This document shows, in pieces, positions 4,010-61,210 of a stretch of DNA of 64,000 bases (its first letter is position 1; every line of letters begins with the position of its first letter). Source of the DNA: Octopus vulgaris. Lineage: Eukaryota. The stretch covers positions 7,502,001-7,566,000 of the forward strand of contig OX597827.1 in assembly GCA_951406725.2 (NCBI GenBank). Direction: 5' to 3'. Made by a program: the position numbers and the translations under genes. Under the pieces are notes generated by a model. The model saw only the letters and a program-made list of their open reading frames with translations, did no database searches and had not been told where the DNA came from.

Positions 4010-4216
4010 TGGGAAGGTTTACGAAAATAAACAAAAGACGAAGGCAGGTAGAGTACAAACAAACAAATGTATTAGTATGGCGCTCAGGAATAGAAATAGA
4101 ACAAGTCTTTTACGTTTCGAGCCTACGCTCTTCGACAGAAAGATTCACAGAAAAGAAACAAGGAGAGAAACAAGGAGAGAAAAAAAATGCTTGTAGGAGC
4201 TAACGATCTAACATGG
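4010..4216 (-). mobile_element. Short Penelope-like (pLTR-like) element in (TA)n, family P1
   Basis: Near-identical to 15433-15633, flanked by (TA)n, contains a hammerhead motif. Confidence 0.65.
4106..4143 (-). ncRNA. Minimal type-I hammerhead-like motif, variant core CUGUCGA
   Basis: Minus strand: UCUUU-CUGUCGA-A-GAGC-GUAG-GCUC-GAAAC-GUA-AAAGA. Confidence 0.6.
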
Positions 4217-5307
4217 TGTATATATATAAGTATATAATGTCTTCTCTGATTAAAAGTGAGCTGAAATATTCTGGCCAAATCGTGAAAAAGCTATCAATTA
4301 AACATGCACTATTTTGATTGTGGCATTGAATATTGTTCAACTGTAGATAGATAGATAGATAGATAGATAGATAGATAGATAGATAGATAGATAGATAGAT
4401 AGATAGATAAACAGAGATTGAGAGAGAGAATTCCAATCACTTGAGTAAAATTGTATGATATATATATATATATATATATATGCATAACACACTCACATAC
4501 TTATAAATACATACAGCTGCCTGTATTTGTGAGGTCTTCATGCAAAAGCAGACAGTCAGAGACAAATGTCCTCAGTGGTTACTTGACCATTTCCTATTTC
4601 ACATTTAATTTAACAACCTACTGAACATATATTTAGTTCATTATCAGTATCCAAATATTTCGAGACGAAATTTATTATGATTTTAAGTTTGTTTGTTCAA
4701 TCATTTATTCATTATTTAAGACAATTTCCAGAATTTATTAATAACCTTTATTAAGTTTTAAGAAACAAGATTTTCAGCTCCAAATTAGAAAAATGAAAAC
4801 ACACACACACACACACAAACACACACACACACACACACTCACACACACACACACTCACACACAGAGAACAAAATAAGAAAAGAAATATGCAACAGAATAT
4901 AATAAAAGAGTAAATAAGAAAGTTTCTCTTCTCTTTCATATTTTAGAATTAGTATTAGTCAGTCACCTCAGTAACAAGCAGGAAGATAATTGGGGAGAGA
5001 TTTAAAGATTTCTTGCAATCAGTGGCCTATGGCTCCATTCATACTACTGTCATTATTTTCATATTTTTCCTTCCCCATATTTCCTTATCTCTGCATCTCC
5101 TTGTCACTTTTCTCATACATATTAATTCCTACATCTTTTTTTTTCTTTTCTTTTCTTTCTCTCTCTCTCTCTCTCTCTCTTTTCTTTCTCTAAATCTCTC
5201 AGCTTCTTTCGATATCGACATATGTCAATTTGTGGCATATATAAGTGATACTGAAACAGAGCGCGCTGAACATTTATAATAAGGTAAATTGTTAGTATTG
5301 AAATAAG

Positions 5308-5845
5308 AATGATGATGATGACAATGGCGACGATGATGATGATGATGATGATGATGACGACGACGAGGACGATGATGGTGATAATGGGGATGATGATGAT
5401 GATGATGATGATGATGACGGTGGTGGTGGTGGTGATTATGATGGTGACGATGATGATGACGATGACTACGACGACGATGATGGTGATAATGGTGATGATG
5501 ATGATGATGATGACGACGGTGATGATGGTAATGATGGTGATGATGATGATAATGATGACGACGGTGATGATGGTGGCGGTGGTGGTGGTGGTGGTGATTA
5601 TGATGGTGATGATGATGACGACGACGACGATGATGATGGTGATAATGGTGATGATGATGATGATGATGATGACGACGGTGATGATGGTGGTGGTGGTGAT
5701 TATGATGATAATGATGATGATGATGACGATGACGCCGACGATGATGATGGTGATAATGATGATGATGATGATGATGATGAGGACGGTGATGATGGTGGTG
5801 GTGGTGGTGGTGGTGGTGATTATGATGGTGACGATGATGATTACG
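5308..5845. repeat. Imperfect (GAT/GGT/GAC)n trinucleotide array
   Basis: Directly visible; source of the poly-Met ORF. Confidence 0.95.
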
Positions 5846-6486
5846 ATTAATAAGTGGTATATAATATAGGAAACTAGAAGGAGAAAGAGACCTTAGCGAA
5901 TAGCACAGGGTTTATTCACTGATTTTTATGCAGATACAGAAATACATACATATTTACATCTATACTTGCACACATGCATTTACACACACACACACACACA
6001 CACACACATGCACACACATACACACACACAAACACATGCACACACACACACATGTACAAATACATGTATACATCTATGCATATATAAGTATAAATCCTCT
6101 CAGGTAGATGACTCTGCTCAATCTGTAGGAAAGGCGTAGGTAGAAATTCCTTAAGGTGTACCCAGTGTAAGCTATGGACACATAAGAGGTGTAACAATAT
6201 CAGAGGAAGATTAACTGGAAAACCCAGTTTTTATGTGTAGAAGGTGCTCAAGTACAAATCAACACTAAAAATGTACAGAAAATAGACTCCATCAAATGCC
6301 GGGAGGAGAAACTAGAAGTAATTGATAGCTTCCATTACCTAGGTGACCAAGTCTGTAGCAGAAGTTGATGCTCCGAGAACATAGCTGCTAGAATAAGAAT
6401 AGGTTGGGCAAAGTTCAGAGAGCTCTTACCTTTGTTGGTAACAAAGGGTCTCTCCCTCAGAGTGAAAGGCAGATTGTATGATACCT

Positions 6487-6705
6487 ATTTCTTTACTACC
6501 CACCCTCAAGGGGCTAAACACAGAAGGGACAAACAAGGACAGACAAACGGATTAAGTCGATTATATCGACCCCAGTGCGTAACTGGTACTTATTTAATCG
6601 ACCCCGAAAGGATGAAAGGCAAAGTTGACCGCGATGGAATTTGAACTCAGAACGTTACTACTGATGAAATACTGCTGAGCATTTTGCTCTGCATGCTAAC
6701 GATTC
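6487..6705 (-). mobile_element. SINE family B inserted in RTE, 12-bp TSD
   Basis: TSD tgtatgatacct at 6475-6486 and 6706-6717. Confidence 0.9.
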
Positions 6706-7026
6706 TGTATGATACCTGTGTGCAAACAGCCATGCAACACAGCAGTGAAACATGGGCTGTGACTGCTGAGGACATGCGTAGGCTTGAAAGAAATGAAGCT
6801 AGTATGCTTTGCTGGATGTGCCATGTCTCTGTGCATGCATGACAGTGTGTAAACGTCTTGAGAGTAAAGCTGGGCATAAGAGGCATCAGATGTGGCGTAC
6901 AAGAGAGACGACTGTGTTGGTATGGTCATGTGATGCTTATTGATGTGGACAGCTTTGTGAAGAAGTGCTGATCTCTACCAGTGGCAGGAAGCTGTGGAAG
7001 AGGGAGACCCAGGAAGACATGGGACA

Positions 7027-7260
7027 AGGTGGCGAGCTGGCAGAAACGTTAGCATGCCGGGCGAAATGCTTAGCGGTATTTCGTCTGCGTTACGTTGTGA
7101 GTTCAAATTCTGCCGAGGTTGACTTTGCATTTCATCCTTTCGGGGTCGATAAATTAAGTACCAGTTACGCACTGGGGTTGATATAATCGACTTAATACCT
7201 ATGTCTGTCCTTGTTTGTCCTCTCTGTGTTTAGCCCCTTGTGGGTAGTAAAGAAATAGGT
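7027..7260 (+). mobile_element. SINE family B (tRNA head, gtcgactttgcctttcatcctttcggggtcgataaa central domain)
   Basis: ggcgagctggcagaa head, gagttcaaattc B box, aaagaaataggt end; splits the RTE KTW..KHDL motif. Confidence 0.9.
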
Positions 7261-59151: not shown

Positions 59152-59315
59152 TAGGTGGGGCCACGTGGTAAGAAGTTTGCTTCTAAACAACATGGTTCCA
59201 GGTTCAGTCCCACTGCATGGTCTTTTGGGAAAGTAAGTGTCTCCTGCTATAGCCTCAGACCAACCAAAGCCTTGTGAGTGGATTTGGCAGACAGAAACTG
59301 AAAGAAGCCCATCAT
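59152..59315 (+). mobile_element. SINE family A 5' half, diverged
   Basis: catggttccaggttcagtcccactgc...gaaactgaaagaagccc. Confidence 0.75.
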
Positions 59316-60177
59316 ATATATATATATATATAATAATAATATTAGGGAATAAATCCAAACTTACAGGGAAAAATGAGATTTAGGATTAAATCCAATTTTA
59401 TAGTATAAATATATTATAATATAATAGTGGTTTTATCTCTATCTCTAATTTAATATAATATATATATAATTAAGATTCCATTGAATTAGATACTTAAATT
59501 GAGACACCTGGCTAGGTCGGTATAATTTACACGCCCAAACAATATTAATTGAATATTGAATATCAAGACTCCATGCAGGTTTGTTTGTACCTGATATTCC
59601 TGCCACTGTGTGTGCAGACAATGCAACCCAGCAAAGTGAAGATATCAACTCTTGGTAACTCAGACAGGTACTTTGTATAAAAAGTGCAGATTCCAAGTTA
59701 GGTGAATAGAATATAAATGAATAACAATGATGTACAGGTGTCAATTCATTATGGCCATTTCAAGCAGCTATTTTAATTGATTAATGATAACATCACATTA
59801 TTTGAGAGAAACCATTCACCATTCACCATTCACCAGATGATCACATAGTCTTCAAACATAAAGGATACAACCATTTGACTATTCCAGCAGAGAAAGGTCT
59901 TATTATATACGATTATACACAAATGTGTTAAACCGGACATTACATGAATATATATCTTTTTATTTTATTTTTTTACTTGTTTCAATCATAAGACTGCAGC
60001 CATGCTGGAGCACTGCCTTGAACGATTTTAGTCAATAGCCATCTCTACTCTTCTTTCTTCCATGTGATGGGGTATTCCTACCCCATCAAGCATTCCCTTA
60101 CTGCTAACCCTACAACCTACCCTTTTGTGTAAAAAGGCTTAGATATATGGTTCCAGTACATTGAGAGTCTAGTAGAT

Positions 60178-60545
60178 TCATCATCATCATCATCGTTTAA
60201 CGTCTGTTTTCCATGCTAGCATGGGTTGAACGGTTCAACTGGGGTCTGGGAAGCCAGAAGGCTGCACCAGGCTCCAGTCTGATCTGGCAGTGTTTCTACA
60301 GCTGGATGCCCTTCCTAACGCCAACCACTCCATGAGTGTAGTGGGTGCTTTTTACGTGCCACCCGCACAGGTGCCAGGGGAGGCTGGTAACGGTCACGAT
60401 CAGTTGGTGCTTTTTACGTGCCACCGGCATGGAAGCCAGTCAAGGTGGTGCTGGCATCGACCACGTATGGATGATGCTTTTTATGTGCCAGGGGAGTCTG
60501 GAAACAGCCATGATCAGTTGGTGGTTTTTACATGCCACCAACCAC
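60178..60545 (-). mobile_element. Family C repeat
   Basis: Matches 1051-1300. Confidence 0.85.
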
Positions 60546-60864
60546 AGACAATAGATTGTCTAACATCAATTGATTTATCACCATTTACTAGAATACAGCT
60601 GACAGCTCCCAATGGATTTAATTCTAAATAGTTGAAGACTACATTCTACTTAAAGTCTTCTAAATATAAGTAACTAAGTCACCACTTTTGTTATCATGAC
60701 ACTATTTCTTCTGGTACTCTCTAAATTATAGTAGGCTTGACATGATATGCCTTATTTTCTAAACTCATTCTGCCGCAGAAACAATGTAAATATTTTGAGT
60801 TCCATTATTGATGTAAATATGTTTAAAAAATGGTTATATCCTTTATGTTTGAAGTCTATGGTGG

Positions 60865-60948
60865 TCATCTGATGAGAACAGTTGCTTTCAAATGATGTAA
60901 TGCTTTCATTCATCAATTAAAGGAGCCTACTTGAAACAGCTGTGATGA
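60865..60948 (+). ncRNA. Decayed type-I hammerhead-like motif
   Basis: UCAU-CUGAUGA...GAAAC-AGCU-GUG-AUGA; GUG is a non-cleavable triplet and stem II is unclear. Confidence 0.45.
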
Positions 60949-61069
60949 ATTGACACCTGTACATCTTTGTTACTCATATATACAAATATATATATTAATC
61001 ATAAATAATATATATATATATATATATATATATATATATATATATATATATATATATATATATATATAT

Positions 61070-61210
61070 TCTCTACTTTTTTCTCTCCTGGTTTCTCTCT
61101 GTGTTCCTTTCTGTGGAAGAATGTAGGCTCGAAATGTTAAAGACTTTTTCAATTCCCGTGCCTTATACTAATAAATCTGTTTGTTTTCTACACCATCTGT
61201 ATTTGTGAAT
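61070..61210 (+). mobile_element. Family P1-related element with hammerhead-like motif (61107-61142)
   Basis: CUUU-CUGUGGA-A-GAAU-GUAG-GCUC-GAAAU-GUU-AAAG; homologous to 30930-31088. Confidence 0.6.

Follow-up and report, generated by a model that had tools for sequence, protein, structure and literature searches.

We describe here a family of hammerhead-like motifs in a 64,000-nt stretch of the Octopus vulgaris genome (GCA_951406725.2, contig OX597827.1, positions 7,502,001 to 7,566,000 of the forward strand; this whole stretch is called the window below). Five copies carry the core CUGU-N-GA, with U at position 6 in place of the A of the canonical CUGA-N-GA (A6U). We suggest, with a probability of about 0.55, that they belong to an abundant, ~200-nt non-coding repeat that is the 3'-end (pseudo-long terminal repeat, pLTR) stub of a Penelope-like element (PLE), copied in trans and carrying a minimal type I hammerhead with a family-wide U6, which would be a slow cutter at best. 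Membership in the PLEs is likely, judging from the geometry of the repeat and not from a linked gene. The minimal PLE hammerhead is a known kind, formed by weak and possibly dispensable ribozymes; what is new is the family-wide A6U.

Anatomy of the five motifs and of a canonical relative

All motifs in the window were parsed with the hammerhead numbering. The five copies, named here after positions 4106, 13014, 15532, 30959 and 61107, were found at the places and on the strands given in a preliminary description of this DNA, and are listed below with a related repeat (54954).

4009 to 4216, minus strand: copy 1 (4106), young subfamily; motif 4106-4143, U6 at 4135, predicted cut after 4111
12925 to 13114, minus strand: copy 2 (13014), older subfamily, decayed (G12A and G16.2A at CpG, broken stem II); motif 13014-13051, U6 at 13043
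15433 to 15633, minus strand: copy 3 (15532), young subfamily, 96% identical to copy 1; motif 15532-15569, U6 at 15561, predicted cut after 15537
30929 to 31086, plus strand: copy 4 (30959), older subfamily; motif 30958-30995, U6 at 30966, N7=A, U15.2, U17
61069 to 61210, plus strand: copy 5 (61107), older subfamily, tail shortened, stem II damaged; motif 61106-61143, U6 at 61114, N7=G
54852 to 55030, minus strand: related repeat (54954) with canonical core CUGAUGA; motif 54953-54989, GAGC/GCUC stem II, 106-nt tail

The core CUGU-N-GA is present in 5/5 copies, as CUGUCGA in 4106, 13014 and 15532, CUGUAGA in 30959 and CUGUGGA in 61107. In all of them A9 is followed by an extra A, stem I is CUUU/AAAG, with a fifth pair in two copies, and the G10.1-C11.1 pair is present. 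The stem II previously described as common to the copies, with 4 bp and a tetraloop, is intact in 3 of the 5 and has one mismatch in 13014 (GACC) and in 61107 (GAAU). The 3' part of the motif reads GAAA, two bases, U and then H17, which is A or U and never G in the five copies. Two copies have an ACGU palindrome in the 15.2-16.2 region and two have AUGU (wobble only), the palindrome being broken in 13014. The latter copy had been reported as mutated in GAAA and in the triplet, and indeed carries G12A and G16.2A; both are CpG sites, and the loss of G12 and G16.2 has the appearance of normal post-insertion decay.

The pattern TTTCTGWNGAAGA has six matches in the window, namely the five U6 motifs and the 54954 motif, against a shuffle mean of 0.02 (100 shuffles). 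A structure-based scan of the window gave 8 matches against a mean of 0.13 (30 shuffles), recovering three U6 copies and missing the two damaged ones, while Rfam gave no match in the window at the gathering score. Around 11-12 nt upstream of the core, 4 of the 5 copies have a direct repeat of the core start, TCTGT (15576-15582 and equivalents), and the base that follows it equals N7 in 30959 and 61107. This upstream repeat could have been the template for U6.

As described before, the 54954 motif has the canonical core CUGAUGA and the same GAGC/GCUC stem II as the U6 copies, and it has a compensatory G-C in stem I. It matches the intact U6 copies at 26-28 of 36 motif positions. With the common tail length and stem II, yet a flank identity of only 43-54%, it is to be regarded as a member of a sister family. 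An insertion that shifts the register could have mimicked A6U; this was rejected because the canonical 54954 motif aligns gap-free across the core.

The host repeat and U6 in public sequencing runs

Each motif sits inside a repeat of ~150-210 nt, so that the family described earlier is real but extends beyond the 37-nt motif. Copies 4106 and 15532 share 96% identity over 217 nt, and the other three are 73-80% identical to these two; because of this near-identity, the five copies represent two subfamilies and not five independent cases. Between the predicted cut site and the 3' end there are 102, 104, 106 and 96 nt in the four copies that end at (TA)n, and 72 nt in the 61107 copy, which ends at (TC)n. 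The 5' ends are ragged and differ among the five. These are hallmarks of PLEs: a common 3' end with 5' truncation, a hammerhead near the 3' end and a microsatellite target.

No tandem or inverted arrangement was found among the five U6 copies, with 0 tandem copies in the window and a nearest spacing of 2.5 kb, between different subfamilies. The pair with this spacing, 15532 and 13014, on the same strand, was considered as the flanks of one PLE and rejected, the two being ~75% alike and separated by a microsatellite and another repeat. The window DNA as a whole is AT-rich, microsatellite-filled and of animal type. Directly after the (TA)n of the 30959 copy there is a stretch (31103-31200, plus strand) that we take, by resemblance, to be the head of a tRNA-like short interspersed element. 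Directly upstream of the 15532 copy lies a separate mid-copy repeat (15664-15880) that shows several opposite-strand joints in contigs; such joints would be expected of inverted PLE-type insertions.

We compared four public runs with window 15430-15880 at 80% likeness, taking the 15532 copy as reference; this filter largely leaves out the canonical sister family. Three of them are contig sets (X3, X5 and X10) under three organism labels (B, C and D), which may or may not include the species of the window, and 12,088, 20,521 and 7,363 contigs were aligned, respectively. Contig depth, which is not copy number, shows A at position 6 in 2,637 of 1,463,878 in X3 (0.18%), 48,490 of 7,847,084 in X5 (0.62%) and 3,899 of 987,126 in X10 (0.39%). 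A nearby non-CpG stem change reaches 0.33-0.99% of depth, the same order as the A6 share. On the other hand, N7 is polymorphic (C, U, A), with U at 43-55% and A at 16-25% of contig depth. These results support U6 as a family-wide trait and not decay, as the preliminary description proposed, and the consensus has U6 and not A6 over the contig depth of the three runs, a narrower scope than genome-wide. The constancy of U6 follows from shared descent, and alone it is no sign of selection or activity.

Contig depth has its maximum at the motif, about 1,500 times the level over the repeat next to it upstream; in hundreds of contigs, similarity ends immediately beyond stem I and other flanks follow. 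Subfamilies with diverged flanks therefore share the motif. In X3, one contig contains a tail-to-head joint (15602 to 15455, depth 19.7) that implies a ~195-nt unit, being 1 among 12 of 17 joint rows. The U6-family pattern had no match in viral contigs or in prokaryote genomes, and in metagenomes it matched 5 loci, all with A6 and with flanks unlike those of the U6 family. Generic U6 and A6 patterns in viral contigs had the full anatomy in 0/120 and 0/120 loci, respectively, among the matches listed.

Possible readings: slow cleavage, lost cleavage and other roles

In the PLE-stub explanation, a Penelope-type protein with reverse transcriptase (RT) and GIY-YIG, encoded elsewhere, would nick (TA)n, and the RT would copy the RNA from its 3' tail, generating 5'-truncated solo stubs. 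A6U would have had a single origin in a founder and then been inherited by all subfamilies. The source elements would have retained the rest of the hammerhead, its fold or a residual slow dimer cleavage still mattering, and the solo genomic copies, without helix III, would be inert. Pairing via the ACGU palindrome would need two motifs in one RNA, and the CUGA turn of such a pair would be weakened by U6.

An attenuated ribozyme is likely because changes at position 6 lower the activity in published assays. When a type III hammerhead was subjected to a full mutational scan, activity was low in every single mutant of the CUGA turn, with no rescue by positive epistasis except for the C3-G8 swap (PMC9901934). 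A natural A6C hammerhead has an observed rate constant (kobs) of <0.1 per min (PMC3088659) and is strongly impaired in Mg2+ (PMC7151607). Even with a canonical core, the minimal hammerhead ribozymes (min-HHRs) of PLEs, which lack helix III, do not cleave as monomers and have low activity as dimers (PMC4209133). Very high copy numbers are also known from PLE clades that have no canonical hammerhead (PMC8557442).

The majority lines of the young and old subfamilies agree in 32 of 34 motif columns, 15.2 and H17 being the exceptions, and in 87 of 104 flank columns. The variable sites (N7, 15.2 and H17) are positions that the hammerhead tolerates, which is suggestive, and only that, of the rest of the motif still being under selection.

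Several points weigh against the attenuated PLE stub. The higher conservation of motif over flanks does not reach significance (Fisher p=0.16), and the stems covary weakly (28/500 shuffles, with six window motifs and one metagenome motif). None of the 150 longest non-repetitive frames of the window (of 218) reached a Pfam curated cut-off, no RT was found there, and neither an RT plus GIY-YIG frame nor any other coding region of the window could be linked to a copy. The attenuation is extrapolated from A6C and from the type III scan, no A6U rate having been found in print. Every copy spans its own cut site, meaning that the template was uncut or re-joined there; since the canonical 54954 copy also does so, with the same tail, an uncut template is not special to U6 and gives no explanation of it. 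The tally at position 6 covers the variants listed, with 94 more beyond them, leaving C6 or G6 subfamilies and other core changes unbounded. Finally, in the fourth run, of raw reads (X22), A6 was found in 5 of 5 reads over position 6; these reads have 2 start points and at least 16 other differences, only 39 reads were aligned from 1,934 Mb, and this run is not a useful sample of the U6 family.

The lack of significance between motif and flanks agrees with a dead passenger, in which the founder A6U abolished cleavage, the motif has had no function since then and amplification depended only on the 3' tail as a good substrate for the PLE RT. Two other hammerhead-like motifs of the window, with core changes U4C and A9C, also suggest a lax constraint. 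The folding predictions point in the same direction: taken alone, intact motifs form both stems I and II, but once 45 nt of sequence upstream and 95 nt downstream are included, the stem II probability drops to 0.00-0.08 in the U6 copies. In the canonical 54954 copy with its natural flanks, stem I is also poorly formed (probability 0.03). However, the subfamilies differ at tolerant positions (N7, 15.2 and H17), H17 is not G in any of the five copies, and the depth peaks at the motif while the flanks diverge. We consider a functionless motif somewhat unlikely.

A non-catalytic role was considered as well, in which the motif would serve the PLE protein as an RNA handle or act with its flanks as a folding switch, U6 being neutral or favoured. 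In 4 of the 5 U6 copies and in 54954, G12 and the 3' strand of stem II have an alternative pairing partner, a YGAGY downstream, and RNAalifold prefers this exclusive fold plus an upstream hairpin. The covariation term, however, is only -0.04 kcal/mol, pyrimidine-rich flanks pair with any purine run, and the sites that vary are those that catalysis tolerates (N7 free, no G at H17). Such a role is very improbable.

At the other extreme, U6 could be an efficient natural variant, compensated by a cofactor, a metal (e.g., Mn2+) or a distal contact, with tandem transcripts resolved into ~195-nt units or circles as in a non-LTR (long terminal repeat) retrozyme. Mn2+ does rescue A6C, to a kobs of about 0.2-0.3 per min (PMC7151607), and the unit implied by the X3 joint falls within the 51-972 bp range of retrozyme consensuses, slightly below the 220-240 bp coral units. 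Against this, the window has no tandem copies, the tail-to-head arrangement appears in that single joint among the 12 listed (of 17), described retrozymes have canonical hammerheads, and the failure of epistasis to rescue CUGA-turn mutants, the C3-G8 swap excepted, applies here too (PMC9901934). An efficient variant is quite improbable. We see as unlikely, though less so, a working hammerhead that is deliberately slowed or cofactor-gated, the first natural one with U6, selected through several subfamilies and host species. The preliminary description had left a choice between an active variant and a family that lost its cleavage; here an attenuated state is the likeliest reading, and the known minimal PLE type had been overlooked there.

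Known hammerheads, neighbouring motifs and significance

Except for A6, every element in the descriptor of the min-HHRs of metazoan PLEs (Cervera and de la Pena 2014, PMC4209133) is found in the U6 family. Both have a stem I of 4-5 bp, an extra nucleotide after A9, G10.1-C11.1, GAAA-CG-U-H without loop III, a U-rich 5' flank, many solo copies and the need to dimerise. The limits for stem I (3-7 bp) include 5/5 copies, and those for stem II (3-7 bp with a loop of 3-10 nt) the 3/5 with this stem intact. The first core box differs, as the published descriptor demands CUGANGA and 5/5 copies have CUGUNGA, so that this family would be missed by it. A6 is present in all 56 representatives of Fig. S3 of that paper, where the sole core covariation described is U3-A8. 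Hence the U6 family works like a PLE min-HHR, but the published descriptor does not include it. Among published motifs, the nearest is the Neptune min-HHR of Acropora digitifera, with a G-GC/GCUC stem II and CG-U-H (PMC4209133). Two of the metagenome contigs (L001, 3945-3973; L002, 7907-7935) contain a canonical A6 minimal hammerhead nearly identical to the Acropora motif, with a GAGC/GCUC stem II.

A natural pyrimidine at position 6 is also found in the A6C hammerhead of phage Bcep176, which has low but detectable activity (PMC3088659, PMC7151607). In that case it is a C in a single phage ribozyme assayed alone, whereas here it is a U, family-wide in a high-copy animal repeat without helix III. 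Non-LTR retrozymes (PMC7229834; bioRxiv 10.64898/2026.07.22.740005) are likewise short non-coding hammerhead repeats, thought to derive from the PLE pLTR, and dispersed monomers of them occur. They differ in having tandem arrays, canonical type I hammerheads and circular RNAs, while the U6 copies are solo and minimal, with a non-canonical core and no helix III. Hydra-clade PLEs share with the U6 repeat the hammerhead near the 3' end and the (TA)n preference; the latter is also seen in the Naiad clade, which amplifies without a canonical hammerhead (PMC8557442). Hydra hammerheads differ from the U6 family by a true helix III and by A6, which the Chlamys motifs have as well (PMC8557442). Six short words, five of DNA from the repeat and one peptide from the neighbouring fragment, matched no element in the consensus files of that study. 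A natural U6 (A6U) hammerhead was not found in the literature searched, where subscription journals are thinly covered and Luense et al. 2017, on PLE hammerhead variants, falls outside the coverage. One match to 'hammerhead + A6U' was discarded, since it concerns the twister ribozyme.

Other hammerhead-like motifs were observed in the window. An inverted pair of another repeat, 93% alike (14291-14420, minus strand, and 14789-14921, plus strand), is probably one insertion and contains motifs at 14344-14387 and 14822-14869 with the core CCGAUGA (U4C), a stem II of 7 bp and, in helix III, the palindrome CAGCUG. A third family is represented at 16149-16188 (minus strand), with A6 but A9C and a 6-bp stem II, and a diverged copy of the tail of this motif is inverted at 17042-17141. 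Nearby, an 88-aa open stretch (16720-16985, minus strand) is similar to the end of a GIY-YIG endonuclease. It has no Pfam match and no longer homologue; its nearest named Atlas cluster has GIY-YIG in 15% of the members (score 0.92), which is a lead only, and its first 65 nt are duplicated at 15821-15885. This GIY-YIG-like fragment is more likely tied to the 16149-16188 motif than to a U6 copy. At 26907-27296 (minus strand), a 129-aa frame with no Pfam match resembles the C-terminal end of a CR1/L2-type long interspersed element protein.

It is an open question whether the hammerheads of Penelope elements must cut for the element to spread (PMC4209133, PMC8557442). With the same stem II and tail geometry, the canonical A6 relative and the highly abundant U6 family of this window are a pair, matched by nature, on which it can be addressed. 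Cleavage by U6 would mean that the hammerhead consensus is too narrow, and likewise the descriptors by which these motifs are counted; lack of cleavage would make the family an example of a very successful PLE-type repeat spreading despite a disabled ribozyme. Should the U6 hammerhead prove to be working and selected, a whole hidden class of retroelement hammerheads would be unseen by CUGANGA-based searches, and the U4C motif of the window may be a second example of it.

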